Assembly (NCBI GenBank): GCA_032127265.1
Contig: JAQAZP010000103.1
Coordinates: 831-64,830 of the forward strand
Reading direction: 5' to 3'
DNA from: Acidobacteriota bacterium
GTDB lineage: Bacteria > Acidobacteriota > JAQAZP01
DNA: 64,000 bases
In this document: positions 7,234-53,669 of the stretch, one piece after another
How the letters are laid out: every line of letters starts with the position of its first letter
Position numbering within the stretch: the stretch's first letter is position 1
The notes under the pieces: generated by a model
Database searches by the model: none
Told to the model about the DNA's origin: nothing
Seen by the model: the letters and a program-made list of their open reading frames with translations, nothing else
Position numbers and translations under genes: made by a program

Positions 7234-9441
7234 TCAGTTGAGGTAGCCAAGGGCCCGCAGGTGGGCGCGGGTTTCGGCATCGATCTCGGCCTTCTCACCG
7301 CTGGTTTCCAGGATGGAAGCCAGTTCCCGCTGACGTGTCAGGTGATCCATCAGCAGTCCCTTGAGTTCCAGCCTCAGGTCAGGCCTTTCGTAGATCAGGT
7401 TCCGCTGTTCGCCAGGGTCCTCCAGCAGGTCGTACAGCTCCTCCCGGCCGGTCACCTCGCTGAGCACGAACTTGTACCGCCCATTGCTCACAGCCTTCTT
7501 TTCACCGAAGTAGGCCATCGCCTCGTAAAAGGCCGGGCGGTCCTCCGGCTCCTCCTCGCCGCGGATCACCGGCAGCAGGCTAAAACCCTCGGCGTAGTCC
7601 AGGCCGGGCAGTCCGAGGAAATCGAGGATGGTGGGCGCCAGGTCCACCAGGCTGACCTGGGCTGCGATACTCCGGTTCCGCTCCAGCTGTTCCTCGTCGG
7701 CCGGACGGATGATCAACGGCACGTTGACCAGCTCGGTGAAGCAGGTGTGGCCATGGGAGACACTGTCGTGCTCCCAGAACTCCTCTCCATGGTCGCTAGT
7801 GAAGATAATCATCGTGTTGCGGGTCAGTCCCAACTGCCTCACCCGGTCGAGGAATTGGCCGAGGACCATGTCAGTGTATTCCACCTCCCGGTTGTAGAGA
7901 TCCTCGATATGCCGGCGATCCTCGCGGTTCAGAACCCTGCCGGTGCGATAGGAGACGACCATCCCGGAGTTGAGCCGCTGGATCTGGTGCCCCTGGTAGT
8001 CCCGGCCCGCATCGGCAATCCAGCGGTCCCGGGCCACGTAGGGTTCGTGAGGATCGATCACATGGAGCCAGAAAAAGAAATTGCTCGAGCGATTGGCCTC
8101 GAGAAACTCCAGTGCGTATTGCAGGTTGAACGCACAGTTGACCGACTCATCCTGACCCTCGTCCTGCACCGGGTTCACCTTCCACCAAACCGGTTTGACG
8201 GCACGATACCAGAGGTGACCGGTCCAGTAGGCGGCCCGCAAGCGGTGTTTCATGTGATCGAAAACGGCGAAGCCCTGGTGAACGCCGAAAGGCTCCAGCA
8301 GCCAGCCGTTGGAAACCACCGCACCAGTGTTGTAGCCCCCGGCAGCCACCTTTTCGGCCACCGTTTCGCGCATGCTGTCCAGCTGATCCTGCATCGCCAG
8401 CACCCCGTGGGCCGTGGGGTACATCGAGGTGAGCATGGAGCAGATTGAGGACAGGGTCCAGGAAGACTGGGCCTGGGCACGGGAAAAGAGGATGCCCTCC
8501 TCGGCCAGCCGATCAAAGTTCGGGGTATTGCAGGGATCGTTGCCCGAGCTGGAGATCCGGTCGGCCCGCAGAGTGTCCACCGAGACAAGTATTACATTGC
8601 GGTCCAGAACACCTTTACCAAGCCCATCCACCCGGACCTCCGTTTCGGCCGGCCTGGCGAGATAGGGCAGAAACACGGGCAGGGTGAGACACAGAACCAC
8701 CAGCAGGGACAGGTGGCGCACCAGCGGATACCGCGACGATCCCTTGAGATAGCGGGGCGAGAGCCAGGCTGCGGTGAGCCAGACCGTAGCGGCCAGGAGC
8801 AGCAGGAACAGTGCCGCCACGCCAAAAAAGAGCAGGGAGAAACTGAATTTGAGATACACCCGGTTGACCCACAACGCGGCCGGGGTGAGCAGGAGCACCC
8901 ACAGCGACAGAGCCACGAGGAATGACTTGACCCGGTGGCCCCAGGCCCGTGTACGCACGGTGCGGACCAGGAATCCCACGGCCAGCCCGGTGAGTATGCC
9001 GGAAAAGACCAAACGGAGGTTGAAGAGCAGCTTCTGGGGATCGATCAACAGGGCCAGGCCGAAGCTGTTGTTGAGCAGGAAGAAAACGAAGACGGTGTTC
9101 CCCAGGCCGGCCGTCAGGCCGCTGAACAGGGGAATGAAGCCCTCCGTTGTGCTGAAGAACCGGAACCAGCGGCCGAAGGCCAGATGCAGGGCCAGCGCAC
9201 CCAGCAGGCCCAGCAGGCCCCAGAGCAGCATTTCGGCAAAAATCGGTGTGAAGTAGATCTGAACCAGCTGGGCCACGCGGGTCAGGGGGACGTCGACCGA
9301 GGTACCCGTCTTGGCCGTGGCCGCGAGAAAGCCCTCCTGGAAGCCGATACAGCCTCCGATCACCACGCCCACCTTCCAACCAAACCCGGCGAACCACTTC
9401 CAGCCGGCATCACTTTTCATTGATCTCAACTCCCCTTCCAT
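7234..9441 (-). CDS. membrane-anchored sulfatase / LTA-synthase-like protein (alkaline phosphatase superfamily)
   Basis: N-terminal multi-TM region, then a sulfatase-type domain (VSVDTLRADR, DPCNTPNFDRL, TSDHGEEF). C-terminus ends ...LRALGYLN. Confidence 0.75.
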   Translation of the reverse strand: MEGELRSMKSDAGWKWFAGFGWKVGVVIGGCIGFQEGFLAATAKTGTSVDVPLTRVAQLVQIYFTPIFAEMLLWGLLGLLGALALHLAFGRWFRFFSTTEGFIPLFSGLTAGLGNTVFVFFLLNNSFGLALLIDPQKLLFNLRLVFSGILTGLAVGFLVRTVRTRAWGHRVKSFLVALSLWVLLLTPAALWVNRVYLKFSFSLLFFGVAALFLLLLAATVWLTAAWLSPRYLKGSSRYPLVRHLSLLVVLCLTLPVFLPYLARPAETEVRVDGLGKGVLDRNVILVSVDTLRADRISSSGNDPCNTPNFDRLAEEGILFSRAQAQSSWTLSSICSMLTSMYPTAHGVLAMQDQLDSMRETVAEKVAAGGYNTGAVVSNGWLLEPFGVHQGFAVFDHMKHRLRAAYWTGHLWYRAVKPVWWKVNPVQDEGQDESVNCAFNLQYALEFLEANRSSNFFFWLHVIDPHEPYVARDRWIADAGRDYQGHQIQRLNSGMVVSYRTGRVLNREDRRHIEDLYNREVEYTDMVLGQFLDRVRQLGLTRNTMIIFTSDHGEEFWEHDSVSHGHTCFTELVNVPLIIRPADEEQLERNRSIAAQVSLVDLAPTILDFLGLPGLDYAEGFSLLPVIRGEEEPEDRPAFYEAMAYFGEKKAVSNGRYKFVLSEVTGREELYDLLEDPGEQRNLIYERPDLRLELKGLLMDHLTRQRELASILETSGEKAEIDAETRAHLRALGYLN

Positions 9442-9587
9442 CCCGGCTGCCCATGGCCGGCAGCGGTCGCATATCAGCGCATCAACATGTCACGGGACAA
9501 GGGAAAAAGTATAGACCGTGCTCTATCAGGGATGCAATGGCGGCTTTGCTGAGAATTCTGTTGGCGGATGCTTCATTCAAACGAAAT

Positions 9588-10373
9588 CTACAGCAGGGAG
9601 ACCGGGTCCTGACCAAAGCAGGCCTTGAGCTGCTCGTAGAGCTCAGGGTGGTGGTGCTGCAGCGGCACCGGCCGGACAAAGAAATACTCGGTGAGCACGG
9701 CAAAGAACTCGGCGGGATGAGTGGCCGCGTAGGGATCGAGGAAGGTGGGCCGGCCCCACTCGACCTGCTGTTCCAGGTGATGGTATTCGCGGCCCAACAC
9801 CTCGGCCCACCGTCGGCGTGCCGCCGGGGAGGGAAGGAACGGCGCCCCGTCCACCGGCCCGTTCTCGGCGTCCAGTTGGTGGGCGAACTCGTGATACACC
9901 ACGTCAAGGCAACCCCGGGGGGCCATATCACCGCTCAGCACCTCGTCCCAGGCCAGCACCACCGCCCCGGATGCCCAGGACTCCCCCAGCCTGGAATCCT
10001 GACCCTCGAAAACCGTGCCGTCCGACATGATCTCGCCTCCCGGGGCCAGATACTCCGACGGATAGACCAGCACGGTGCGCAGCTTGGAAAAGATATCCCC
10101 CTCCCGGCCCACCAGCAGCACCGCGGCCCGGCCGGCCACGGTGAGCCGCACCTCGTCGGTGATTTCCTGACCGCCGCACCCCTCGAAGTCGATTCCGTCA
10201 AGAAAGACCTGGACCAGCCCCGCGAACCGCTGCCGGTGATCCGGCGGCAACCGGCGGCAGTACGGCACGGCGCGCTGCACCACGGCACGCTGGGCCTCGT
10301 CCAGCGGTGTCTTCAGCAGTCGATTGCGGCGGCATCCCATGATCCGGAACATGGCTTCTCCCCTCCCGCCCAC
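9588..10373 (-). CDS. mtfA: MtfA-like zinc-dependent peptidase (M90 family)
   Basis: HEFAH zinc motif, a downstream PAEFFAVLTEYFF segment, and a length of about 260 aa as expected for MtfA/YeeI. Confidence 0.75.
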   Translation of the reverse strand: MGGRGEAMFRIMGCRRNRLLKTPLDEAQRAVVQRAVPYCRRLPPDHRQRFAGLVQVFLDGIDFEGCGGQEITDEVRLTVAGRAAVLLVGREGDIFSKLRTVLVYPSEYLAPGGEIMSDGTVFEGQDSRLGESWASGAVVLAWDEVLSGDMAPRGCLDVVYHEFAHQLDAENGPVDGAPFLPSPAARRRWAEVLGREYHHLEQQVEWGRPTFLDPYAATHPAEFFAVLTEYFFVRPVPLQHHHPELYEQLKACFGQDPVSLL

Positions 10374-10443
10374 GGACAGGGCGACGATGCTATTTTAGCA
10401 CCCTCCGGTCCTTCCGTCCTTTCGCGGGTCGACCACCGGTCGT

Positions 10444-12531
10444 TTGCTCCATGGTTCACAACCCTGCGATAATGAAACCATGGTCACCAAGGATGCCAGC
10501 TCGACTCCCCGGGACCGCGGCGTGATTCGCGACACCCTGGGCACCGTCTCCCAGGCCCTGGCCGGCTGTATCAGTTTCGAGGATTTTTTCGACGCCGTCC
10601 ACGACGCGCTCTCCCCTTTCATCCCCCATGACGCCATGGGAATCTACAACTACGACGCCCGCAAGCAGCAGTTCCGGCCGCTGATCATGGACATCCGGGA
10701 TGAGCTGCCCGAGGCCATCGAAAAGATCTACTCCCTGCCCTCGGACGATACGCTGAAGGCCCGGGCGATCCGCGAGAACCGCGCCTTCCGCATCGAAGAC
10801 ACCGCCCAAGCCGATTACGCCGAAGCGCCCCTGCTGGTGGAGATTGGCCTGCGCAGCCACATGGTGATCCCGCTGGTCAGCCGGGGCCGGCCCCTGGGGG
10901 TGCTTTACGCCGTACACCGCGATCCCGGGGTCTACGACGACTTCCACCTCGCCCTGCTCACCGAACTGGCCGCGCCGGTGGCCGTGGCCCTGGAGGAGGT
11001 GCGGGAGCTGACCACCAGCCGCGCCCTGCAGCAGGTGGGCGAGGTGATGGCCGCCACCCTGGACATCCCGGAACTGTTCCTGCTGGTCTCCGAGCGGCTC
11101 CAGCCGGTGCTGCCGCACACCATCGCCTGCATCTTCGCCGTGGATGAAGCCACGAGCGAGCTGGGCCGGACCCCGCTGGTCCGCGCGACGATCCCCGGGT
11201 TCCCGCTGCCGGAAAAGGAGTGCCGGGACCTGCCCCGGGAGATGGTCGACCAGGCTCTGGTGCGGGGAACCCCGGTGCTGATCCCCAGCCTGATGCTGTA
11301 CATCACCCGGCACGAGAGTTATGCCGGACTGATCGAGGCCGGGATCCAGTCCTGCATGGCCTGCCGTCTGGAGGTGGCCGGCCGCCCCTATGGTCTGCTC
11401 TTCATGGGCGACCGGCGCCACGAGGCCTATGCCCGCACCGACCTGGAAAACTTCCTCTGGGTCGGCCGCCAGCTGAGCCTGGCCGTGGCCCACTCCATCG
11501 CCTTCAAGGGGGTGGAGCAGTTGAGCCGCCAGTTGCAGGAGGAGAACATCTACCTCAAGGAGGAGGTCGCCGCGAAAAGCAATCTCGGCGAGATCATCAG
11601 TGCCAGCCCGGCCCTGCAGAATGTTCTGGAGCAGGCGGAGATGGTGGCCTCCACCGACATCACCGTGCTGATCACCGGCGAGACCGGCACCGGCAAGGAG
11701 CTGATCGCCCGGGCGATCCACGAGCTGGGGCCCCGGGCCGGGAAGTCGATGATCCGGGTCAACTGCGCCGCCCTGCCCCGGGACCTGATCGAGTCGGAGC
11801 TGTTCGGCCACGAGCGGGGCTCGTTCACCGGGGCCGAAAGACGGCACATCGGCCGTTTCGAACTGGCCCACGGCGGCACGCTCTTTCTCGACGAAGTGGG
11901 CGACATGCCGCTGGAGGCCCAGGCCCGGCTGCTCCGCGCGCTGCAGGAGGGGGAGTTCGAACGGGTGGGCGGGGAGAGCCTGATCCGGGTGGACGTGCGG
12001 GTGGTGGCGGCCACCAACCAGGACCTCCAGCGGGCGGTGAGCCAGGGCGACTTCCGTGAAGATCTCTACTACCGGCTCATGGTCTTCCCGATCCACATCC
12101 CGCCGCTGCGTGAGCGGGTGGAGGATATCGTCCCCCTGGCCCGCCACTTCGCCCTGCGCACCGCCGAACGGCTGAAGAAACCGGTGCGCCGGCTGACCCG
12201 GGAGAGCCAGAGCGAGATGCTCCGCTACTCCTGGCCGGGCAACGTCCGCGAGCTGGAGCACATGATCGAGCGGGGCATGATCCTGGCCAAAACAAGCGCC
12301 CTGGACCTGGTGCCGCTGATCAGGGCCGTAGCGCGGCTGAACATCCGCGGCGGCCGCCACTCCTTCCCCACCCTCGATGAGGCCGAGCGGGAGCACATCA
12401 TCTCCGCGCTGGAGGAAACAGGGTGGAAGGTGTCGGGCAAGGGGGGCGCCGCCGAGCTGCTCGACGTTCCACGCACCACCCTCCAGGCCCGGATGCGCAA
12501 GCTGGGGATCGGCCGCAACGGCCGGCGCTGA
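10444..12531 (+). CDS. sigma-54-dependent transcriptional activator with N-terminal GAF-type sensor region, no receiver domain
   Basis: AAA+ sigma-54 interaction domain ([29 protein letters not shown]-type loop), C-terminal Fis-type HTH, and an N-terminal region of about 370 aa resembling GAF. Confidence 0.9.
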
Positions 12532-31465: not shown

Positions 31466-32548
31466 GTGTCGAAGCTCAAAGACCAGATCGCCCCCGGCGT
31501 GGTCACCGGGAAGGATGTGCAGCAGATATTTTCAGTGGCCAAGGCGAACAAATTTGCGCTTCCAGCGGTTAACGTCGTCGGCACCAACTCGGTGAATGCC
31601 GTGCTGGAAACCGCCGCGGCGGTGGACTCGCCGGTGATGGTCCAGTTCTCCCACTCCGGCGCGGCCTTCTTCGCCGGCAAGGGAATGCCCGGTGAGGGGC
31701 ACGCCGTGGCCGTGGCCGGAGCCATCTCCGGCGCCATCCATGTCCACCAGGTCTCCTCGGCTTACGGCATCCCGGTGATCGTGCACACCGACCACGCCGC
31801 GCGGAAGCTGCTGCCCTGGATCGACGCCCTGCTGGCCGCCGGTGAGGATTTCCACAAGGCCCACGGCATCCCCCTCTACAGCTCGCACATGATCGACCTC
31901 TCCAACGAACCGATCAAGGAGAACATCGAGACCTGCAAGCCGTATCTCGAGCGGATGAGCAAGCTGGGAATGACCCTGGAGATCGAACTGGGCGTCACCG
32001 GCGGTGAGGAGGACGGGGTGGACAACACCGACGTGGACAGCGCCCGCCTCTACACCCAGCCCGAGGAAGTGGCTTACGCCTACGAGCAGTTGAGCGCAAT
32101 CAGCGACGCCTTCACCGTGGCCGCCGCCTTCGGCAATGTCCACGGGGTCTACAAGCCGGGCAACGTCCAGCTGCGGCCGGTGATCCTGCACAACACCCAG
32201 AAGTTCATCCAGGAGAAGTTCGGCACCGGCGAACTGCCGGTGAACTTCGTCTTCCACGGCGGCTCGGGTTCGAGCACCGAGGAGATCCGCGAGGCGATCT
32301 CCTACGGTGCAATCAAGATGAACCTCGACACCGACATGCAGTGGGCCTTCTGGGAGGGGGTGCACAACTACTACCGCGAGAAGAAGGACTACCTCCAGGG
32401 CCAGATCGGCAACCCCGAAGGGGAGGACAAGCCGAACAAGAAGCACTACGACCCGCGCGCCTGGCTCAGACAGGGCGAACTCTCCTTCATTGACCGGCTG
32501 ACCAGGGCCTTCGAGGACCTCAACTGCATCGGCGCCATGGCGCTCTGA
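31466..32548 (+). CDS. fbaA: fructose-bisphosphate aldolase class II
   Basis: 360 aa, class II FBA motifs (FALPAVNVVGTNS, HTDHA, GNVHG). Confidence 0.92.
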   Translation: MSKLKDQIAPGVVTGKDVQQIFSVAKANKFALPAVNVVGTNSVNAVLETAAAVDSPVMVQFSHSGAAFFAGKGMPGEGHAVAVAGAISGAIHVHQVSSAYGIPVIVHTDHAARKLLPWIDALLAAGEDFHKAHGIPLYSSHMIDLSNEPIKENIETCKPYLERMSKLGMTLEIELGVTGGEEDGVDNTDVDSARLYTQPEEVAYAYEQLSAISDAFTVAAAFGNVHGVYKPGNVQLRPVILHNTQKFIQEKFGTGELPVNFVFHGGSGSSTEEIREAISYGAIKMNLDTDMQWAFWEGVHNYYREKKDYLQGQIGNPEGEDKPNKKHYDPRAWLRQGELSFIDRLTRAFEDLNCIGAMAL

Positions 32549-32566
32549 CCGGCATTCGACCCTGCG

Positions 32567-32594
32567 GGGCCGGCACCTTTTGGTGCCGGCCCCG
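32567..32594 (+). terminator. GC-rich hairpin after fbaA
   Basis: ggggccggcacc-tttt-ggtgccggcccc. No strong U-tract. Confidence 0.4.
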
Positions 32595-32792
32595 TTCCCA
32601 TCGCCCCAAAAAAACGCTTGCTATTCTTCACATTCCTGCTAGGATTATTTTTAATAAGAAGATAAACCCCCATGATTCGTTAAAAGTTGTGCATTTCCCC
32701 CAGGCTGCGGACCGGTTTGCAAACCGATTCGCACCATGCCGGCGGAACCGGTGCGAATCGTCCCGGCCCATCGGCGACAACAGGAGGCAGCC

Positions 32793-32990
32793 ATGGCCTA
32801 CGCGCACACCAACTCCAAGGGCGTCACTTACATCCTTCATTCCAAGGCAGTGCAACTTAAGGGCGGCAAGGTGCAGACCATCTACTTCTTTGCCAAGGAG
32901 GAGAAGGCGGAGGGGGCCCTGCCCTCGGTCCCGGCAGGATATATGGTCTCGGAGACCAAGAACGGTCTGCCGGTGCTCAAGCGCGCCTGA
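32793..32990 (+). CDS. small hypothetical protein (65 aa)
   Basis: ATG at 32793 preceded by CAGGAGG. Two palindromes lie just upstream: cggtttgcaaaccg and cgattcgcacc-N14-ggtgcgaatcg. Confidence 0.4.
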   Translation: MAYAHTNSKGVTYILHSKAVQLKGGKVQTIYFFAKEEKAEGALPSVPAGYMVSETKNGLPVLKRA

Positions 32991-33490
32991 GACTGGTGAG
33001 AGCAGGATGAAGGGGTGACCAGCAACCGGCCGCTGACGGTCCAAGCTATCCCCAAGCAGCCCGGTGCCATCTTGCTTGAAGGGGAGCTTTACTGTAAGCT
33101 TGTAAAAAGCTATACACTGATTCTCCTGCGAGATTCAGGGTTTTTCCATCGATCAGTCAACCGCAGCTATTTTTTAAACCCTGACTCGAGTTTCTTGTCT
33201 AGCTTAAGAGAAGGATACTCTGTACTTTATCGCTTGAACGACGGGGCAGGCCGAGAGTGCTGTCCGCGGGCCGAGAAGTAGCCTTGATTGCACCGGCCTG
33301 ATTCAAGTGCGATGCAGGTTATGCCGATACTAACGAAACCGATTAAACTTCGTACCACATACAAGGGGGGATTCAGCAGGCCACTGCAGAAAGGAGGCGT
33401 TCAGTCCGACGTGATGTTGCAGATGCCGGATTTCCGGCTTTCCCGTAGTCCCCTGACAAAACAATAGTTCGAGCAGAGGGAATTCACCAG

Positions 33491-34510
33491 ATGAAGAAAT
33501 CGATTTATTTCAGCGTTATTTTCATTGCCATGCTCTTCTGCTTTGCCTCGGTCAATGCATCGGCCCAAACCGGCAGTCTCCAGGGTACGGTCACCGACCT
33601 GGACACCGGCCTGCCCCTGGAAGGGGTGATGGTCAAGGCAATGCCCATTGACGAAGAGACCGACGGCCACGGCGGCGGACATGGCGGCGGACATGGCGGC
33701 GGTCACGGCGGATGGTGGAACTGCGCCACCACCGGCGCGGACGGCACCTACCTCATCGATGAGCTGGATCCCGGCATGTACGACGTGACAGCCATGGGCC
33801 CCGGCTACTATAGCGCGGACACCGAGGTCGAGATCGTCGACGGCGAGGCCGCCACCGCTGACTTCGCCCTTGAAATGCTGATGTTCGGCTCGCTCTCCGG
33901 CACCGTGACCGACGCTGACAGCGGCCTGCCTCTGGGCGGCGCTTTTATCCGAGTGGCGGTGACCGAACCCAAGAAATCAAAGACGCATGTTCTCGGCACC
34001 GGGAATCGCCACCACGGCGGCGGCTGCGGACAATACTACCACGCCATGACCGGCGAGGACGGCACCTATCTCATCGACAACGTCATCGTGGATTACTACG
34101 AAGTCCGCGCGTCGAAGTGTGGCTATAACCCCACCGACGCGGTGAGCCTCTTTGTGATCGAGGACGAGACGGCCGTAGCCGACTTTGCGCTCACGCCGCT
34201 GACCTACGGCGCGCTCGAGGGCTACGTCACCGACGCCGGCACCGGCGAACCCATCGAGGGCGCCTGGGTAATGCTGCGTATTGATGACGGCACGCTGCAC
34301 CATGGCGGCCACGGCGGTGGCGGATGGGGCGGCGGCCACTGCTGGGCCACCACCGACGAGAACGGTTACTACCTGATGGACGAGGTAGTGACTGGTGCCT
34401 ACATTGGTTATGCCATGGCTTGGTACTATGAGTATGGCGAGGGTTCGGTGGTCATCGTCGAGGGCGAGACCGCACAGCTGGACTTCGCGCTCGTGCTTGA
34501 CACTGAATAA
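33491..34510 (+). CDS. secreted protein with three tandem carboxypeptidase-regulatory-like (beta-sandwich) repeats, each carrying a His/Gly-rich insert
   Basis: Sec signal peptide (MKKSIYFSVIFIAMLFCFASVNASAQT). Three repeats of about 100 aa of the form G(S/A)L.G.VTD...G.PL.GA.V....(His/Gly insert)...DGTY.ID.L..G.Y.V......DFAL. Inserts: HGGGHGGGHGGGHGGWWNC, NRHHGGGCGQYYH, LHHGGHGGGGWGGGHCW. Confidence 0.65.
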   Translation: MKKSIYFSVIFIAMLFCFASVNASAQTGSLQGTVTDLDTGLPLEGVMVKAMPIDEETDGHGGGHGGGHGGGHGGWWNCATTGADGTYLIDELDPGMYDVTAMGPGYYSADTEVEIVDGEAATADFALEMLMFGSLSGTVTDADSGLPLGGAFIRVAVTEPKKSKTHVLGTGNRHHGGGCGQYYHAMTGEDGTYLIDNVIVDYYEVRASKCGYNPTDAVSLFVIEDETAVADFALTPLTYGALEGYVTDAGTGEPIEGAWVMLRIDDGTLHHGGHGGGGWGGGHCWATTDENGYYLMDEVVTGAYIGYAMAWYYEYGEGSVVIVEGETAQLDFALVLDTE

Positions 34511-34543
34511 CTGAAAACTTGGCCCCTTTCAACGGCTGCAGGC

Positions 34544-34582
34544 CCCAGGCATGCAGCCGTTTCTTTTTTTCAACCATGTTCT
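34544..34582 (+). terminator. rho-independent terminator
   Basis: cggctgca-ggccccaggca-tgcagccg followed by TTTCTTTTTTTC. Confidence 0.5.
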
Positions 34583-34591
34583 ATGGGTGAT

Positions 34592-34705
34592 TGAAAAACC
34601 TCACCTAAGGCTCAAGGGCAAGGCGCGCGCCGCTGAGCAAGCGGAGCCTACTCTGTAGTAGGTGAGCATTGCGAAGTGGCGCGCAACGCAGCCATTGAGT
34701 CTTAG
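34592..34705. repeat. 17-bp terminal inverted repeat (gaaaaacctcacctaag / cttaggtgaggtttttc) flanking an approximately 85-bp spacer with internal palindromes
   Basis: Read from the sequence. Spacer contains cctactctgtagtagg and ggcgcgcgcc. The right arm overlaps the stop of the convergent GT4 gene. Confidence 0.45.
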
Positions 34706-35871
34706 GTGAGGTTTTTCAAGAGTGATTCGTACTGGCCCATAACCCGGTCCCAGGTATAGTTGGCCAGGTAGTAGGCATTGCCCTGGCGGCCCAGGGTATG
34801 CCCCAGGTCGGGCCGCTCCAGCAGCAGGTTCAGCGCGTGGGAGAACTCCTCGAAGCTCCGGTAGCTCAGACCGCCGTCGGCGCGACGCACCTGGCCCTCG
34901 AGCACCGGGCAGCTGGCGTTGACCAGCACCGGTCGGTTACGCCCCCAGGCTTCCAGCACCACCATGCAGAGGCTTTCATAGCGCGAGGGGACCACCAGCA
35001 TGGAGCAGGCATCCAACGCCTGGTATTTCTCCCGGTCATCCACCCCGCCGAGGTGGATGATGTCCGGGTGCTGGGGAATCTGAAGCACCGGGGTGCCGAT
35101 GAGCACCAGCCGGGTGAAGAGATGGCGGATCCGGCTGTGGCTGATAAAGTGGTCGAAGAGCTGGTCGCAGCCCTTGTTCCAGTCGATCCGTCCGATGTAG
35201 AGAAGAAACGGCCCGTCCAGGCCATGCTTTTGCCGAAAGTCTTCGGTGGATCCCACGTTCCCGGGAATTTCCACGCCCACCCCCACGACCTCGCCGGGGG
35301 CGGCACGTCCACCGGTGACCCGGTGGACCAGTTCACGTTCCTCCACCGAGTTGTGCACGATGGCCCGGGGGAGGCCGAACATCCGGGCAAAGATCCCGAG
35401 AAAAACCGCTTCGTCTTCCTCCGCGGTGGGGACGAGGATTGCTTTGCGGCCCAGCGCCTTCACGCCGTGAAAGCTGGTGTAGTAGCGGTAACAGAAGAAA
35501 AAGACAAAGTCGAAACGGCTCTCTTCGCGCTGGATCGCTTCCACCAGCGCCGGGGCGTAGGGGCCGTTCTCTTCCACCCAGAGCAGCTCGTCCTCCTTGC
35601 TGTGCTCCTGATGAAAAACATGGTGCGAGATATCCGAGAAGCGGTCCAGGTTTCGCTGCCGCGCGACGGCGAACCGGTGAACCGGAATGCCGTTTACCTC
35701 CTCGGTACTCTGGGGGTAGTGATTTTTCCAGAGCAGGTATTCAAAGGCGCAGGTGGTGAACACCTCCACATCGTGGTTCACGGAGAGCCGTTCCGCGATC
35801 CAGCGGCAGTGCAGCTCGGCGCCGCCGTTGATCTCCAGTCCATATCGCTGAACCACGAATGCCAGACGCAT
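34702..35871 (-). CDS. glycosyltransferase family 4
   Basis: GT4 C-terminal signature region (PSRYESLCMVVLEAWGRNRPVLV). Confidence 0.85.
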   Translation of the reverse strand: MRLAFVVQRYGLEINGGAELHCRWIAERLSVNHDVEVFTTCAFEYLLWKNHYPQSTEEVNGIPVHRFAVARQRNLDRFSDISHHVFHQEHSKEDELLWVEENGPYAPALVEAIQREESRFDFVFFFCYRYYTSFHGVKALGRKAILVPTAEEDEAVFLGIFARMFGLPRAIVHNSVEERELVHRVTGGRAAPGEVVGVGVEIPGNVGSTEDFRQKHGLDGPFLLYIGRIDWNKGCDQLFDHFISHSRIRHLFTRLVLIGTPVLQIPQHPDIIHLGGVDDREKYQALDACSMLVVPSRYESLCMVVLEAWGRNRPVLVNASCPVLEGQVRRADGGLSYRSFEEFSHALNLLLERPDLGHTLGRQGNAYYLANYTWDRVMGQYESLLKNLT

Positions 35872-38351: not shown

Positions 38352-38429
38352 TGGTGGGCCCACCTGGGATCGAACCAGGGACCAGCCGGTTATGAGCCGG
38401 CGGCTCTGCCAACTGAGCTATGGGCCCAC
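38352..38429 (-). tRNA. tRNA-Met (anticodon CAU; elongator type, or the lysidine-modified Ile2 species)
   Basis: Reverse complement folds as GUGGGCC-CAUAGCUCAGUUGGCAGAGC-CGCCGGCUCAUAACCGGCUGG-UCCC-UGGUUCGAUCCCAGG-UGGGCCCACCA. 1:72 is a G:C pair, so this is not an initiator. CCA is encoded. Confidence 0.85.
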
Positions 38430-47519: not shown

Positions 47520-47736
47520 GAGAGTGCGGGCCCCGGCGGTCCGGCCTGCCCCGCACCATCGGTCGCACGGTACTTCACCGGGGGAAACAGGGCCGAAACA
47601 GGGGTAAGTAATTGATCCCCGGGAGCCAATTTGTAAAAATATGTTATAGTTATGAGTTAACAGGAGAAACAGCGTGGTAGTTTGCGGCAGCCGAGGGGCT
47701 GTTGTTCGTGAACTCCGTTCTGTATCGGAAAGTAAC

Positions 47737-48429
47737 ATGGGAAAAAACGAAAACAAGCCGGGTAACGGGGTCGCTGTCCCCTTCAGGATCAGGGACTGCG
47801 CCCTGATCCCGCTGGCCACAGGCCAGAAGGCGCAGAACCTCAAGGAACTGCACCACTTGCTGCAGGAGGCCGATGCCGGTTGCATCTACTACGCCTTCTG
47901 GGGCGGCCTGCTCAAGCCGGGGTTCGAGAACCCGGAGTATGCCAACGATTTTGCTGCCTGGGCCCACCGGGCCCTGCACGACGACGTGCTGGCGGAGAAG
48001 TTGGGGGTAATCGACCCCACCGAGTTCGACGACCTGGAGTCGCTGCGCCGGGAACTGCTGGACGTGATCGAGGAACACCTGGACACCATCGAGATTATCA
48101 CCTGGACCCGGCGGGACCAGCAGTTCAACTTTATTACCTCCCAGATCGTGGTCTTCGACGCCCAGCGGGAGATCACCGAGCCGCGGCAGCTCGCCGAGGT
48201 GGTGGGCGGGATGAGCAGCAGCAGCATCTTCTACCACTTCATCGACGCCCGCCGGCGGTCCGAGGAGGCGAACGACGATTTCGGATCCTGGCTCAGCGGC
48301 TTCGGGGACCAGTACTGGGATCTGCAGCGCTTGCTGGCCGAGGTGGACCCCTACTTTTCCACCCTGGTGGAACTTCGTGACCAGCTTGCCACGCTTTTCG
48401 AAAACTATTTCACCGCCAATCGGCACTGA
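47737..48429 (+). CDS. conserved hypothetical protein, likely a partner of the downstream TreT-like glycosyltransferase
   Basis: Start taken at MGKNENKPG (ATG 47737). Ends 5 nt before the GT4 gene. No catalytic motif recognised. Confidence 0.5.
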   Translation: MGKNENKPGNGVAVPFRIRDCALIPLATGQKAQNLKELHHLLQEADAGCIYYAFWGGLLKPGFENPEYANDFAAWAHRALHDDVLAEKLGVIDPTEFDDLESLRRELLDVIEEHLDTIEIITWTRRDQQFNFITSQIVVFDAQREITEPRQLAEVVGGMSSSSIFYHFIDARRRSEEANDDFGSWLSGFGDQYWDLQRLLAEVDPYFSTLVELRDQLATLFENYFTANRH

Positions 48430-48434
48430 GGACC

Positions 48435-49667
48435 ATGCTCGAAGAATATACAGACATCGTCGGCAGGGACGTCATCGATCACCTGCGGCAGCTGGTGGCC
48501 CCGATGCGCGGGATCAAGGTGGTTCACGTCAACTCCACCCGCGAGGGCGGGGGCGTGGCCGAGATCCTGCACAAGCTGGTGCCTCTGCAGCAAGACCTGG
48601 GGATCGATTCCTCCTGGGAGGTGATCACCGGCAACCCCGACTTCTACCACTGCACCAAGAACTTCCACAACGGGCTCCAGGGCAACCGGGTGGTGCTGAC
48701 GGACAGCCAGCTGCGCAACTACATGAAGACCAACGAGGAAAACTGCGAACGGCTGCGGGGGACACTGGCCGAGGCTGACATGGTCTTTATCCACGACCCG
48801 CAGCCGGCGGCCTTCCTCCGCTACTGCCCCGAACGGAAGGGCAAGTGGGTCTGGCGCTGTCACATCGACGCCAGCACACCCTACCGCCCGGTGTGGCGGT
48901 TTCTCCGCGACCTGGTCAAGGATTACGACGCCAGCATCTTCTCCCTGGCCGCCTTTGCCAAGCGCCTGCCGCATCCGATCTACCTCATCCCGCCCAGCAT
49001 CGATCCGCTGACCGACAAGAACATCGACCTCGAGGATGCAGAGGTCAACCAGCTCTACCCCAGGTTCGGCCTCGATCCCGACCGGCCGATCATGACCCAG
49101 GTCTCCCGCTTCGACCGCTTCAAGGACCCGCTGGGGGTGGTCCAGGCCTACCGGCTGACCAAGAAGTTCCACCCCACGCTCCAGCTGGTGCTGGCCGGCG
49201 GCGGAGCCAGCGACGACCCGGAAGGGGCGGTAGTGCTGGACGAGGTGAACCAGGCCTGCCACGGGGACAAGGACGCCCACGTGCTGATGCTGCCCCCCGA
49301 CGCCCACCGGACAATCAACGGCCTCCAGCGTCTCTCGGACATCATGCTGCAGAAATCGATCCGCGAGGGATTCGGTCTGACGGTGACCGAGGCGATGTGG
49401 AAGGGCAAGCCGGTGATCGGGGGCAATACCGGTGGAATCCGCCTGCAGGTGGTGAACCACCACACCGGCTTCCTAGTCAGTTCGCCCGAGGGCGCCGCCC
49501 TGCGGATCCGCTACATGCTGCGCCACCGCGACCGGACGCTGGAAATGGGCCGCAAGGCCCGCGAGTTCGTGCGGGAGAATTTTCTGCTCACCCGGCTGCT
49601 CAGGGAACACCTGACACTGATGGCGGCGCTGAACAACGGCATCAAGGACCGCATCGAGCTGAACTGA
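48435..49667 (+). CDS. GT4-family glycosyltransferase, TreT / glucosyl-glycerate-synthase-like
   Basis: 410 aa GT-B enzyme with the EGFGLTVTEAMWKGKPVIGGNTGG signature. Confidence 0.7.
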   Translation: MLEEYTDIVGRDVIDHLRQLVAPMRGIKVVHVNSTREGGGVAEILHKLVPLQQDLGIDSSWEVITGNPDFYHCTKNFHNGLQGNRVVLTDSQLRNYMKTNEENCERLRGTLAEADMVFIHDPQPAAFLRYCPERKGKWVWRCHIDASTPYRPVWRFLRDLVKDYDASIFSLAAFAKRLPHPIYLIPPSIDPLTDKNIDLEDAEVNQLYPRFGLDPDRPIMTQVSRFDRFKDPLGVVQAYRLTKKFHPTLQLVLAGGGASDDPEGAVVLDEVNQACHGDKDAHVLMLPPDAHRTINGLQRLSDIMLQKSIREGFGLTVTEAMWKGKPVIGGNTGGIRLQVVNHHTGFLVSSPEGAALRIRYMLRHRDRTLEMGRKAREFVRENFLLTRLLREHLTLMAALNNGIKDRIELN

Positions 49668-49673
49668 CAGATC

Positions 49674-50477
49674 ATGGAACTCCTCGACCAGACCTTCGAT
49701 TCGGCACGGTTCTGGGCCACGGTGGCCGGCAGCGGGCAATCGCTGCTGATGCTCGACTACGACGGTACCTTGGCGCCATTCGTGACCCGGCGTGACCAGG
49801 CGGTACCCTACCCCGGGGTGCGGGAGGCCCTGCGGCAACTTGCCGCTACCGGCCGCACCCGGGTGGTGGTGATCACCGGCCGCAACGCCGGCGACCTGGT
49901 GCCACTGCTGGGCCTGGAACCATCGCCGGAAATCTGGGGCTCCCACGGCGGGGAACGGATGATGCCCGACGGCAGCTACAGTGTGCAGCCCCTGGAAGAG
50001 GCCCACCTGATCGGGCTCCAGGAAGCGGACGCCGTGATCGAGGAATCAACCCTGCCCCAGCACTTCGAGATCAAGCCGCTGGGCCGTGCCTTTCACTGGC
50101 GCGGGCTGCCGGAGGAGGAGGTCCGCCGGGCCGACCGGACGGTTACCGGGCCGTGGCGCACGGTCGCCGAAACCAGCGGCCTTGAGCTGCGGGACTTTGA
50201 CGGCGGCGTTGAGCTGCGGGTCCCGGGGGTGGACAAGGGGCAGGCGGTGAGCCAGCTGATGAGAGAGATGGGCCAGGGGACCCCGTCCGCCTATCTCGGC
50301 GATGACCGTACGGACGAGGACGCGTTTCGCGCCCTGGGGCCGCAGGGCCTCTCGGTGATGGTCCGTACCGCCTACCGCTCCACTGCGGCGCGGCTCTGGC
50401 TCAAGCCGCCGGAGGAGCTGATCGGTTTTCTGCTGCGCTGGCTCGATGCCACGGAACAGGGGAAGGAGGAACGATGA
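49674..50477 (+). CDS. otsB: trehalose-6-phosphate phosphatase (HAD-IIB)
   Basis: LMLDYDGTLAP motif I, GDDRTDEDAF motif IV. Overlaps otsA by 4 nt. Confidence 0.85.
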   Translation: MELLDQTFDSARFWATVAGSGQSLLMLDYDGTLAPFVTRRDQAVPYPGVREALRQLAATGRTRVVVITGRNAGDLVPLLGLEPSPEIWGSHGGERMMPDGSYSVQPLEEAHLIGLQEADAVIEESTLPQHFEIKPLGRAFHWRGLPEEEVRRADRTVTGPWRTVAETSGLELRDFDGGVELRVPGVDKGQAVSQLMREMGQGTPSAYLGDDRTDEDAFRALGPQGLSVMVRTAYRSTAARLWLKPPEELIGFLLRWLDATEQGKEER

Positions 50478-51967
50478 TTGACGCCGTTAACGTGACAAAC
50501 AGCCGGCTGATAATCGTCTCCAACCGCCTCCCCGTGGTACTGGCCAAGGGCGAGGATGGATCCTGGCAGGCCACCGCCGGGTCCGGGGGCCTGGTCACCG
50601 CCATGGCCCCGGTACTTCGTGACCGCGGCGGCAGCTGGATCGGCTGGACCGGCACGGCCGAGGAAGAACATGCCGACCTGGGAGATCTGCTGGGCCAGGC
50701 CACCAGCAAATCGGGGTACACCATGTCGCCGGTGCGCCTGACCCGTAACGAGGTGCGGAATTTCTATCTCGGATTTTCCAACGAATCGCTCTGGCCTCTG
50801 TTCCACGACCTGTTCCAGCTCTGTATCTTCGACTCCGTCTACTGGAAGGCCTATATCGACGTCAACCGCAAGTTCGCGGAGGTGATTTCCGAAAAGAGCG
50901 GCGAGGACGACTTCATCTGGGTCCACGACTACCACCTGATGGACGTGGCGCGGGTTCTGGCGAATTGGAAAGTCAGGCGCCGCATCGGTTTCTTCCTCCA
51001 CATCCCCTTCCCGCCGCTGGACGTCTTTCTCAAGCTCCCCTGGCGGTCGGAGATCCTCAGCGCGCTGCTGGGTTACGACCTGCTGGGGTTCCAGACCATG
51101 CGGGACCGGCGGAACTTCCTCCATTGCGTCAAGTCGCTGATCAAGGGGGTGGCGGTGCGCGGCAAGGGCCACGTGGTCACGGTGCACACCAAGGACCGCG
51201 AGATCCGGGTGGGCACCTTTCCCATCAGCATCGATTTCAACGAATTCGCCCAGCAGGCCGCCTCCGACGAGGTTGCCAAAGCCGCCTGGTATATCCACGA
51301 GAAGCTGCCCGAAATCCAGATCATCCTCGGGGTGGACCGACTGGATTACACCAAGGGTATCCCCCTGCGGCTGAAAGCCTTCCGCAACGCCCTGCTCCGC
51401 TATCCCGAACTGCAGGAAAACGTGGTGCTGGTCCAGGTGACCGTGCCCAGCCGCAGCGAGATCGCCATGTACCAGGAACTGAAATCGGAAATCGAACGGC
51501 TGGTGGGCGAGATCAACGGAGAGTTCACCCGGTCGGGCTGGGTACCGATCCACTACATCTGCCGCCACCTCGAGCGGGAGGAACTGCTGGCCTATTACCG
51601 TGCGGCCGAAATCGCGCTGGTCACGCCGATGAAGGACGGGATGAACCTGGTGGCCAAGGAATACTGCGCGTCGAACGTCGATGCCAAGGGTGTGTTGATT
51701 CTCAGCGAGTTCGCCGGCGCGGCAGCCCAGTTGCAGAAGGGGTCACTGCTGGTCAACCCCTACGATCTGGACAAAGTGGCCGACGCCATCCACCAGGCGT
51801 TCCACATGGCAAAGGAGGAGAGGGAGGCCCGGATGCGCCGGATGCGACAGCTGATAAAACGGCAAGACATCTTCGCCTGGGTCAACTCGTTTCTCAGCGC
51901 CGCCATCGACCGGGACCTCACCTCATATCCCGTACTCGAGGATTACGTGCCGCAGTTCGAGTTGTAA
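50474..51967 (+). CDS. otsA: alpha,alpha-trehalose-phosphate synthase (GT20)
   Basis: LIIVSNRLPV..., WVHDYHLM, GT20 C-terminal region. 497 aa. Confidence 0.92.
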   Translation: MIDAVNVTNSRLIIVSNRLPVVLAKGEDGSWQATAGSGGLVTAMAPVLRDRGGSWIGWTGTAEEEHADLGDLLGQATSKSGYTMSPVRLTRNEVRNFYLGFSNESLWPLFHDLFQLCIFDSVYWKAYIDVNRKFAEVISEKSGEDDFIWVHDYHLMDVARVLANWKVRRRIGFFLHIPFPPLDVFLKLPWRSEILSALLGYDLLGFQTMRDRRNFLHCVKSLIKGVAVRGKGHVVTVHTKDREIRVGTFPISIDFNEFAQQAASDEVAKAAWYIHEKLPEIQIILGVDRLDYTKGIPLRLKAFRNALLRYPELQENVVLVQVTVPSRSEIAMYQELKSEIERLVGEINGEFTRSGWVPIHYICRHLEREELLAYYRAAEIALVTPMKDGMNLVAKEYCASNVDAKGVLILSEFAGAAAQLQKGSLLVNPYDLDKVADAIHQAFHMAKEEREARMRRMRQLIKRQDIFAWVNSFLSAAIDRDLTSYPVLEDYVPQFEL

Positions 51968-51996
51968 ATGGGAACGATAGAAGCGGTTCCATAACC

Positions 51997-52770
51997 TCAA
52001 CTGTGGTGCGAGAGCTTCTTCTCCACCAGGCGGCAGATCTGCGCCGCCATGTATCCCGCGCCGAACCCGTTGTCGATGTTGACCACGGTGAGCCCGCTGG
52101 CACAGGAGTTGAGCATGCCCAGCAGTGCGGCCACGCCGCCGAACGCCGTTCCGTAGCCTATGGAGGTGGGAACAGCGATCACCGGCACGCTGACCAGGCC
52201 GGCGACCACGCTGGGCAGCGCACCTTCCATGCCGGCCACGGCAATGATCACGTCGGCCCGGGCCAGCCGCCGTTCCTGGCTGAGCAGCCGGTGCAGGCCG
52301 GCCACGCCCACATCGTGGGCCCGTTCCACATTCTCCACCATCAGTTCGGCGGTGAGCGCCGCTTCCTCGGCCACCGGAATGTCCGATGTGCCGGCGGTGA
52401 GCACTAAAACGGTGCCCGGTGCGCGGTGGAAGCCGGGTTCCTCGATGATCACCGCCCGGGCCGCCGCACTGAATCGAGCCTCGGGAAACCGGCCGGCCAC
52501 CAGGTCGTATTTTTCCCGGCCGACCCGAGTCACCAGCACCGGACAGCCGTTCTCGCGCAGCTTGGTTGCGATGGCCAGGATCTGCTCCGGCTCCTTCCCT
52601 TCACCGAAGATGACCTCCGGAAACCCCTGCCGCAGGTGGCGATGGTGGTCGAGCTTGGCGAAACCGAGGTCTTCAAAGGGCAGGTGCCTCAACCGCTCCA
52701 GCCCCTCCTCAACACCGAGTTTTCCTTCGCGCACGGCGCCCAGCAGCGCCTCCAGATCCTTCAGGTTCAT
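51997..52770 (-). CDS. larB: nickel-pincer cofactor biosynthesis protein LarB (PurE-like carboxylase/hydrolase)
   Basis: C-terminal PurE-like region VLVLTAGTSDIPVAEEAALTAELMV...HDVGVAGLHRLL...VIIAVAGMEGALPSVVAG. Start taken at MNLKDLEALL (52770). Confidence 0.7.
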   Translation of the reverse strand: MNLKDLEALLGAVREGKLGVEEGLERLRHLPFEDLGFAKLDHHRHLRQGFPEVIFGEGKEPEQILAIATKLRENGCPVLVTRVGREKYDLVAGRFPEARFSAAARAVIIEEPGFHRAPGTVLVLTAGTSDIPVAEEAALTAELMVENVERAHDVGVAGLHRLLSQERRLARADVIIAVAGMEGALPSVVAGLVSVPVIAVPTSIGYGTAFGGVAALLGMLNSCASGLTVVNIDNGFGAGYMAAQICRLVEKKLSHHS

Positions 52771-52925
52771 CGACCCTGTCTCCTTCACTCCACCGGGCCA
52801 GCCGGCGACATCGCTTAATTGACACATCCCGGTCCCCATAATAACATGACCGCCGTTCCTGTTTCCGGCCTCCAGCAGCCGAAACTCCGGCAGAGGCCAT
52901 TCTTCGCTACGACGGGAAGGGCCAC

Positions 52926-53669
52926 ATGGGCAGTAAAAAGGTCCACCAGGGAAATCTCGAAACGGTTTCCCCGTCAACGCTGATCGCTGACATCTTTCGC
53001 GGGCGGTTCACCGGCATTCTGACCCTGGAACAGGGGAAACGGAAAAAGTCGCTCTTCATCAAGGGCGGTTCGGTGATCTTCGCCGACTCCACCGACATGG
53101 AAGACCGGCTGGGACAGGTGCTGGTGCGCGGCAACCGGATCACCGAGGCAAAAATCACCTCGGCCCTGGAGATCCAGAAAAAAGAGGGGTCGGAGGACAA
53201 GCGGCTGCTCGGCGCGATCCTGGTCAAGGAGGGGTTCATCAAGCCGCTGGAGCTGGTTTGGGCGGTAAAGACCCAGGTCGAAGGCATCTTCTGCGACTGC
53301 TTCCTCTGGAACGAGGGGAGTTTTGCCTTTGCCGAAGAGGATGCCCCCGAATCCTGGCCGGTGATCACCCTCGACCTGTCGATGCCGGAGCTGCTGCGCA
53401 TGGCCCTCAACATGGTGGAAGACCCGATCACCATGGCCAATCTGCTGGGCGACTTCAGCCAGTTGATCGACGTCTCCGCCAAGTGGCTGGATATGGTGGA
53501 ACAGTTCAAGCTGAAGCCGCTGGAGTTCGACCTGCTGGGCCGGGCCCAGGCCGGTGCCGACACCCTGGCCACTCTGATCCTCGCCTCGCCCTACCCCGCC
53601 GCCGAGACCGGCCGCGGCGCCCTGCTGCTGAGTTGTCTGGGTGTGATTACGCTGAGCCCGACTTCCTGA
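52926..53669 (+). CDS. DUF4388-like protein
   Basis: N-terminal GNLETVSPSTLIADIF...GILTLEQG...IFIKGGSVIFA pattern is characteristic of DUF4388. Confidence 0.5.
   Translation: MGSKKVHQGNLETVSPSTLIADIFRGRFTGILTLEQGKRKKSLFIKGGSVIFADSTDMEDRLGQVLVRGNRITEAKITSALEIQKKEGSEDKRLLGAILVKEGFIKPLELVWAVKTQVEGIFCDCFLWNEGSFAFAEEDAPESWPVITLDLSMPELLRMALNMVEDPITMANLLGDFSQLIDVSAKWLDMVEQFKLKPLEFDLLGRAQAGADTLATLILASPYPAAETGRGALLLSCLGVITLSPTS

Follow-up and report, generated by a model that had tools for sequence, protein, structure and literature searches.

Three transthyretin-like domains with His/Gly-rich loops in a predicted exported protein of Acidobacteriota, a candidate metal-binding protein

Disordered His-rich tracts such as the loop of ZnuA, the Gly/His/Cys termini of ZraP and the His tracts of HypB, UreE and SlyD are thought to capture, buffer or store Zn, Ni or Cu, and the proteins that carry them have a primary metal site or a partner encoded nearby, such as an ABC transporter, a two-component system or an enzyme maturation pathway. 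In the octarepeat of the mammalian prion protein, (PHGGGWGQ)n, Cu(II) is held by the imidazole of His together with the amide nitrogens of the two Gly that come after it, HGGGW being the Cu(II)-binding unit; when occupancy is low, one Cu(II) is shared by several His and the affinity is sub-nanomolar (PMC6721516). Here we describe a gene at 33491–34510 on the forward strand of a 64,000-nucleotide stretch of an Acidobacteriota genome (GenBank assembly GCA_032127265.1, contig JAQAZP010000103.1, positions 831–64,830; hereafter the window). Its product is a predicted exported protein of three beta-sandwich domains, each of which carries a His/Gly-rich insert in the same loop. We tentatively read it as an extracytoplasmic multivalent metal-binding protein that would act as a buffer, sponge or store, a reading to which we give a little short of an even chance. 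The coding sequence, whose bounds are those of an initial annotation made from the letters of the window, and the parts of its product are the following.

33491–34510 (+), coding sequence of the exported protein with three transthyretin-like domains, 339 amino acids plus stop.
33491–33565 (+), signal peptide, residues 1–25, with a putative signal peptidase I cut between ASA and QTG; G+C content (GC) 0.43.
33566–33883 (+), domain 1, CarboxypepD_reg beta-sandwich, residues 26–131; predicted local distance difference test score (pLDDT) >90 outside the loop.
33884–34201 (+), domain 2, CarboxypepD_reg beta-sandwich, residues 132–237, from Pfam and the model.
34202–34507 (+), domain 3, CarboxypepD_reg beta-sandwich, residues 238–339, from Pfam and the model.
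33656–33721 (+), loop 1 insert, ETDGHGGGHGGGHGGGHGGWWN then Cys78, residues 56–77; predicted disordered, of variable length among orthologs and strains.
33671–33711 (+), 12-nt tandem repeat GGCGGCGGACAT in 3.4 copies, encoding the (GGGH)n of loop 1; a replication-slippage substrate.
34007–34042 (+), loop 2 core RHHGGGCGQYYH, residues 173–184, including Cys179; 9/12 positions invariant in eight orthologs, ungapped.
34283–34345 (+), loop 3 insert DDGTLHHGGHGGGGWGGGHCW, residues 265–285; a His/Gly(/Pro) tract of variable length in orthologs.

The open reading frame has coding-type composition, with GC at the three codon positions of 0.64/0.46/0.78. Its three repeats are 102–106 residues long and 35–47% identical to one another, and Pfam places all three stretches in PF13620 (CarboxypepD_reg, transthyretin clan) at 115.1 bits, against a gathering threshold of 32.3 (E = 1.9e-33). 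We found that an AlphaFold2 model built on 22 homologs (mean pLDDT 81, predicted template modelling score 0.66, strands assigned by DSSP) predicts three confident beta-sandwiches, each consistent with the seven-stranded prealbumin-like fold. Long low-confidence segments (pLDDT <50) occur in the model only at residues 56–75, 161–180 and 267–282; they have no secondary structure and are the three inserts, each placed between strands 2 and 3 of its own domain. The protein is thus an array of three transthyretin-like (CarboxypepD_reg, CnaB-like fold) beta-sandwiches with His/Gly inserts at the same loop. The initial annotation had read this architecture from the repeats, and the Pfam matches and the model bear it out, both for the three sandwiches and for the site of the inserts.

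The inserts are HGGGHGGGHGGGHGGWWNC in loop 1, RHHGGGCGQYYH in loop 2 and HHGGHGGGGWGGGHCW in loop 3. All 12 His of the mature protein lie within the 89 loop residues and none in the other 250. HGGG occurs five times in the window protein, beside HGGWW and HGGGGW, and each of the three inserts is followed by a Cys beside an aromatic residue. The mature protein is very acidic, with an isoelectric point of about 4.1 (5.4–9.3 in its neighbours), 49 Asp plus Glu against 9 Lys plus Arg, only 5 Lys, and 18% Gly. We sought a paralog or a further H/G tract in the window and found none. A sequence search of the PDB gave no match for the isolated loops and only a chance match for the whole protein (E = 0.74); PDB matches to 'Cake' designed proteins were discarded as an artefact, since they spanned the junction of an artificial concatenation of two loops.

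The protein is probably secreted by the Sec route, as its predicted signal peptide indicates. We called the signal peptide by eye from sequence features and from conservation of the AxA-Q motif among orthologs: the N-terminus, MKKSIYFSVIFIAMLFCFASVNASA followed by QTG, begins with MKK, which gives a KK n-region, and continues with a hydrophobic core of 15 residues and the cleavage motif A-S-A; AxA-Q is kept in all orthologs. Residues 2–22 form a helix in the AlphaFold model. The signal peptide claimed at the outset therefore stands. A check of the sequence for the lipobox [LVI][ASTVI][GAS]C did not find one, the sole Cys of the signal peptide lying in MLFC-F with Phe at –1; this Cys is missing from ortholog P0007.

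We found seven syntenic orthologs, 60–75% identical to the window protein and built on the same three-domain plan, in which 7/8 to 14/17 of the His lie inside the loops. The three loops behave differently across these eight proteins. The loop 2 core follows the consensus RH[HW]GGGCGQ[HY]Y without gaps and is invariant at 9/12 positions, against 110/246 in the scaffold. Loops 1 and 3 are variable-length H/G(/P) tracts with 2/25 and 1/33 invariant columns and 16–17 gapped columns, and their His-rich composition is retained despite this turnover of length and sequence. The possibility, raised by the initial annotation, that homologs lack positioned His/Gly inserts is not borne out among the closest relatives, where the inserts are kept, are His-rich and stand at the same positions. 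Exact HGGGW is present in orthologs P0001, P0002 and P0003, and Trp is retained in or beside the loops within the clade of the window protein. The Cys of the inserts is conserved in 8/8 proteins in loop 2 (Cys179), 6/8 in loop 1 and 2/8 in loop 3, so the Cys-aromatic ending described for each insert holds for the window protein but is conserved among orthologs only in loop 2. In P0006 the equivalent of Cys179 is the sole Cys of the mature protein, and there it therefore makes no structural intramolecular disulfide.

The turnover is visible at short range. Among nine sequences at least 94% identical to P0001, multi-residue indels (5–6 residues) occur only in the loop 1 tract, and the one other gap is a single Lys ahead of loop 2. 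A metagenome scan for further loci returned three, one of which is an ortholog, and no exact copy of the window protein turned up when its sequence was looked for in public assemblies. A word-indexed homolog search with a single domain and its loop gave one weak match, because words of low complexity crowded out the candidates.

In both sequence and fold these are ordinary PF13620 domains; in the PDB the family is represented by two carboxypeptidase D entries, 5aq0 and 1qmu. A canonical domain spans 82 positions and has a short connection between strands 2 and 3, whereas each domain here has an insert of 20–27 His/Gly-rich residues at that place; unlike carboxypeptidase D, the protein has no catalytic partner domain and consists of the three domains only. 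The same prealbumin-like fold, arranged as beads on a string, is found in CnaB pilins and MSCRAMM B-repeats (8bdw, 3phs, 6fwv, SdrD), and CnaB-type proteins are the top Foldseek matches, with E down to 4e-17 at 10–17% sequence identity. Among Pfam clan relatives SpaA reached 31.6 bits over one stretch and SdrD_B fell below its cutoff; Cna_B (PF05738) was not among the Pfam families with E<=1. There is no LPXTG in the 339 residues, which end in ...LDFALVLDTE, and the Lys required for an isopeptide is absent from the first strands GSLQGTVTD, GSLSGTVTD and GALEGYVTD, so the protein is not an isopeptide-stabilised adhesin array, a known class with which it might have been confused. The host lineage, too, is of diderm type, unlike that of the Gram-positive CnaB arrays. 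The repeats also match positions 1306–1422 of the NCBIfam model for the Kustd1514-family anammox S-layer glycoprotein (NF052345), a region of the same domain type; at 101.4 bits against a cutoff of 1400, and with 339 residues against about 1600, the protein falls outside that family.

How might such a protein work? We infer metal binding, the identity of the metal and the physiological role from sequence. The loop chemistry points to metal binding through its HGGG repeats, the exact HGGGW of three orthologs and the invariant His/Cys motif of loop 2, and Sec export, the acidic scaffold, the predicted disorder of the loops, the confinement of His to them and the retention of His-richness despite turnover fit a buffering role. 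The signal peptide and the isoelectric point of 4.1 fit a cation-binding exported protein. We also count in favour of this reading the rarity of such loops, since an H/G-rich loop was present in only 5 of the 140 top representatives of a CarboxypepD_reg profile search.

As a metal buffer, the protein would be exported by Sec and would by default be periplasmic in a diderm, with further release possible. The three rigid, very acidic transthyretin-like beta-sandwiches would form a scaffold on which each domain presents one long flexible loop between strands 2 and 3, and the loops would be the working parts. They would bind divalent transition-metal ions, most likely Cu2+ and also Ni2+ or Zn2+. 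In loops 1 and 3, made of tandem HGGG-type units, several imidazoles might share one ion with high affinity at low metal load, and at high load each His and the following Gly backbone amides might hold an ion of their own, as in HGGGW of the prion octarepeat. Loop 2 would be a site of fixed sequence offering a His/Cys/Tyr ligand set with a lone conserved thiol. Slippage of the 12-nt repeat underlying loop 1 would let the capacity for metal drift.

The likeness to the prion octarepeat extends to several features. Both have tandem His-Gly-Gly-Gly units in a disordered, exported segment with Trp adjacent, and both vary in the number of repeat units by slippage; in the window protein we find His with at least two Gly and a nearby Trp in tandem, together with predicted disorder. 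The H[HW]GGGCGQ of loop 2 resembles PHGGGWGQ, with a thiol in addition. Unlike those of the octarepeat, the units here are irregular, lack the Pro/Gln frame and are carried in loops on beta-sandwiches, not in an N-terminal tail. A more specific form of the metal-buffer reading would make the protein a convergent bacterial counterpart of the prion octarepeat, with HGGG(W/H) Cu(II) units on a three-domain scaffold and a fixed His/Cys site, acting as a high-capacity copper (or Ni/Zn) buffer tuned by slippage at the population level; drawn by analogy, this is possible and rather doubtful. Were it true, the protein would represent a previously undescribed class of metal-buffering proteins in Acidobacteriota-like bacteria. 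Should the loops bind metal at all, the small clade of the window protein would provide a simple and natural design, with prion-like HGGG copper units set on a well-behaved beta-sandwich scaffold. Octarepeat-type coordination could then be modelled on a protein outside the prion field, metal buffering by uncultivated bacteria of soil and sediment would gain a marker, and engineered metal capture a scaffold; a first function would also be assigned to one branch of the CarboxypepD_reg repeat proteins, a very large family that is almost uncharacterised. If the loops are adhesive or neutral, this is an ordinary exported repeat protein with low-complexity loops.

The comparison with the bacterial proteins named above, which we make from general knowledge, is mixed. 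Like the tracts of ZnuA, ZraP, HypB, UreE and SlyD, the inserts are His-rich and predicted to be disordered, differ in length between orthologs and are joined to a folded scaffold. Unlike those proteins, ours has no recognisable primary site and no metal-related neighbour.

Several results weigh against a metal buffer. No metal transporter, sensor or metalloenzyme maturation gene is adjacent, here or in the orthologs, and the neighbours are housekeeping genes; no metal-regulator site, riboswitch or operon partner was recognised; and homologs at 35–45% identity stand in unrelated neighbourhoods, again as single genes. The weakly constrained length of loops 1 and 3, even among strains, is also what neutral slippage would produce, and the resemblance to the octarepeat is compositional and convergent, without homology. 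The composition of more distant loops points the same way: they are Gly/Trp or Gly/Phe without His in P0029–P0032 (GGGGWGGWGG, GGFGFGG) and short and Trp-rich in P0010 and P0019 (VGFWWFNAAY). With Trp or Phe for His, or a short loop, in relatives at 35–45% identity, His-richness is a trait of the clade and not of the family, and the ancestral job of the loop was probably not metal binding.

A profile search of 1.84 billion representatives returned 18,552 matches at E<=1e-3, of which 433 reach E<=1e-30. Dominant among the matches are giant multi-repeat proteins, whose strand 2–3 connection averages 13 residues. A long Gly-rich loop characterises a subfamily of small (300–500 residues) exported proteins with 3–5 domains, members of which occur in metagenome-assembled genomes labelled Holophagae or Acidobacteria (38–41% identity to the window protein), and the loop persists at the same position to about 35% identity. 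Within the subfamily its content is Gly/His in P0016–P0028 and P0033; in the wider family, P0047 has WGWGWGG. Across the family, then, the loop trait is Gly with aromatic residues, and His-richness is strongest in, and characteristic of, the clade of the window protein. No database family name was found for this subfamily, nor any paper on it in the literature searched, in keeping with the initial annotation, which had not recognised the combination from any described family.

In two members of the subfamily at about 40% identity, P0020 and P0027, a helical C-terminal extension carries a repeated GATMEEIHAAI motif and an LTEEQ motif. A CpxP/ZraP-like module considered for this extension was dropped, as the Pfam Metal_resist match (E = 3) is chance. 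Outside the window and in another architecture, P0053, P0055, P0057 and P0058, which are sorted by the type IX secretion system (T9SS), begin with one CarboxypepD_reg domain that has a EGWHGGGHGGGHHGG loop. They also contain an unannotated module, FGPxWYDPGxGATRPxxGD, in two copies joined by H/G-rich linkers (GGHGGGGHHGD, GQGHGGHGGHGGYGGC). Other secreted architectures thus have H/G segments as well.

The family-wide loop trait underlies the main rival explanation, that of a cell-envelope or matrix protein whose beta-sandwich array spaces flexible Gly and aromatic (Trp/His/Tyr/Phe) loops. Through many weak contacts such loops would hold to one another or to a polymer or surface, be it exopolysaccharide, peptidoglycan, mineral or plant polymer, and His would be one aromatic flavour among several, possibly giving pH- or metal-dependent cohesion. 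The His-free loops of P0029–P0032, P0010/P0019 and P0047 and the Trp kept in or near the loops of the window's clade speak for it, as does the company kept by the fold: its nearest structural relatives are adhesive or other surface proteins, components of S-layers and the N-terminal extension of SusC, and the repeats have the partial match to the anammox S-layer model described above. The gene is also convergent with a GT1 glycosyltransferase gene in most orthologs and evolves faster than any other gene of its neighbourhood, as is common for surface proteins. Against it, the protein has no anchoring or sorting signal, whether LPXTG, PEP-CTERM, T9SS C-terminal domain, lipobox or S-layer homology domain; the S-layer score lies far below its cutoff and the GT1 adjacency is lost in L003–L005 and in distant homologs. 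An adhesive role also leaves the His-free scaffold and the invariant His/Cys motif of loop 2 unexplained. We judge this explanation unlikely.

A more deflationary account is that replication slippage, in a surface loop that tolerates it, has generated the inserts as low-complexity expansions of largely neutral effect, and that function resides in the beta-sandwiches. Loop 1 fits this account, being encoded by a 12-nt tandem repeat in which the indels of near-identical sequences concentrate; the scarcity of invariant columns and the many gaps of loops 1 and 3, the predicted disorder and the loss of loop His in more distant relatives would also follow from it. What slippage does not account for is that all three loops stay His-rich in all eight orthologs despite turnover while the scaffold has no His, that the loop 2 core is never gapped and is more conserved than the folded domains, and that a long Gly-rich loop persists at such distant identity. 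We consider a neutral origin improbable as the main explanation.

The gene follows, in order, genes for a phosphodiesterase, a sulfatase, a PtsN-like EIIA and a class II FBA and a 66-residue open reading frame, and on its convergent side lie GT1, a hypothetical protein, YggS, a Zn-ribbon protein and a tRNA, then RpoD, DnaG and MutS2. The same order, PtsN-FBA-(small open reading frame)-target / GT1-hypothetical-YggS-Zn-ribbon-RpoD, is found in L001, L002, L006, L030, L033 and L034, that is, in every ortholog contig long enough to show it. In these six loci the neighbours are 73–92% identical and the target 58–75%. Every ortholog locus that spans the interval from FBA to the target has a nitroreductase gene there; this gene has left no trace in the window (best tblastn E = 0.57), so the intergenic region at 32549–33490 has been remodelled here. 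The gene is inherited vertically as a single-gene unit. The neighbours of homologs, which the initial annotation had hoped might include metal or nickel genes, are housekeeping or unrelated, and the genomic context neither supports nor contradicts any function.

The flanks of the gene are GC-poor, at 0.50–0.55 against about 0.63, and its first 75 nt have a GC of 0.43, so part of what was noted at the outset about AT-rich flanks and an odd codon flavour stands; the gene body is native, however, with a GC of 0.60–0.67 like that of its neighbours, and GC at third codon positions (0.78) lies inside the window range of 0.72–0.91. Codon usage correlates with the rest of the window at 0.827, the second lowest of 39 genes and no outlier (the lowest is 0.824), and the skewed amino-acid composition, 18% Gly with few Lys and Arg, makes such statistics noisy. 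That the gene is a recently acquired cassette tied to nickel enzymes such as a nearby LarB, to which the GC-poor flanks, the codon correlation, the low-GC 5' end and the rearranged nitroreductase interval lend some colour, is very improbable and largely refuted: synteny is conserved and composition native, the GC-poor flanks are simply the intergenic leader and terminator, and the LarB-like gene lies 17.5 kb away on the opposite strand, past RpoD, DnaG, MutS2 and a trehalose-synthesis cluster, with at least 10 unrelated genes between, which leaves no nickel link. This gene, at 51997–52977, encodes a 325-residue AIRC (LarB/PurE-like) protein that is extended at its N-terminus by about 185 residues. 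The trehalose-related cluster occupies part of 47674–52977 and comprises DUF5752, a TreT-like GT1, a trehalose-phosphatase and a GT20 trehalose-6-phosphate synthase.

Three further elements flank the gene.

33476–33481 (+), Shine-Dalgarno-like GAGGGA, 9 nt 5' of the ATG; GGAGG stands at the matching place in orthologs.
34531–34572 (+), intrinsic terminator, called by folding, a GC-rich hairpin (34531–34561) followed by the U-run UUUCUUUUUUU.
33352–33438 (+), conserved 5' leader, consisting of the block GTACC..GGGGG.TT.AGCAG.C.ACTGC.GAAAGGAGG at 33352–33397 and the GC hairpin GCCGGATTTCCGGC at 33425–33438.

The terminator hairpin folds with –23.4 kcal/mol (z = –3.2, none of 200 shuffles as good), and with its U-run it gives the gene, which is convergent with the next one, GT1, a terminator of its own, as first proposed. 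The leader lies about 55–140 nt 5' of the start codon and is also present in L001, L030, L034, L036, L003 and L033; a downstream CCCC could pair with the GGGG of its block. In L002 the block directly adjoins the ATG, and its GGGAGG therefore acts there as the ribosome-binding site. Rfam gave no leader match at the gathering threshold over the whole window or at E<=1 over 32540–33520. The leader folds no better than shuffles (z = 0.05), and RNAalifold returned a conserved multi-hairpin shape without covariation (covariation term +1.5). A sigma-70-like promoter was looked for upstream of the gene and not found, and an upstream leader peptide after the first GGAGG was rejected on by-eye reading, as it is not kept among orthologs.

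Some minor features of the orthologous loci and of the window were also observed. At 7986–8005 of L002 the called start of P0007 (MFLTLF...) is probably five codons short, since immediately 5' of it there is an in-frame ATGAAGAAGACCCTG (MKKTL), which has a GGGAGG ribosome-binding site and fits the MKK start of the other orthologs. In the P0005 lineage (L003, L004 and L005, about 9214–11338) an insertion sequence with an rve-family transposase and helix-turn-helix domains lies directly 3' of the target, in the place of the GT1-YggS-RpoD block of other orthologs. The 66-residue open reading frame at 32793–32990 (+), MAYAHTNSKG...GLPVLKRA, is without a Pfam match but is 92% identical to a 64-residue gene called in L001, L006 and L030. 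One tRNA gene, at 38355–38427 (–) between the Zn-ribbon gene and rpoD, is the sole Rfam match of the 64-kb window. The interval between the terminator of the target and the convergent GT1 contains, at 34591–34719, an almost perfect hairpin some 130 nt long (–87.9 kcal/mol, z = –10.9). The hairpin has no second copy in the window and no Rfam match, and its right arm takes in the stop of GT1 and the five codons before it. It may form a 3'-end RNA structure of GT1 or terminate that gene, or else be a small palindromic insertion. A related element stands at the same place in L033 and a shorter one in L034, with none in L001.

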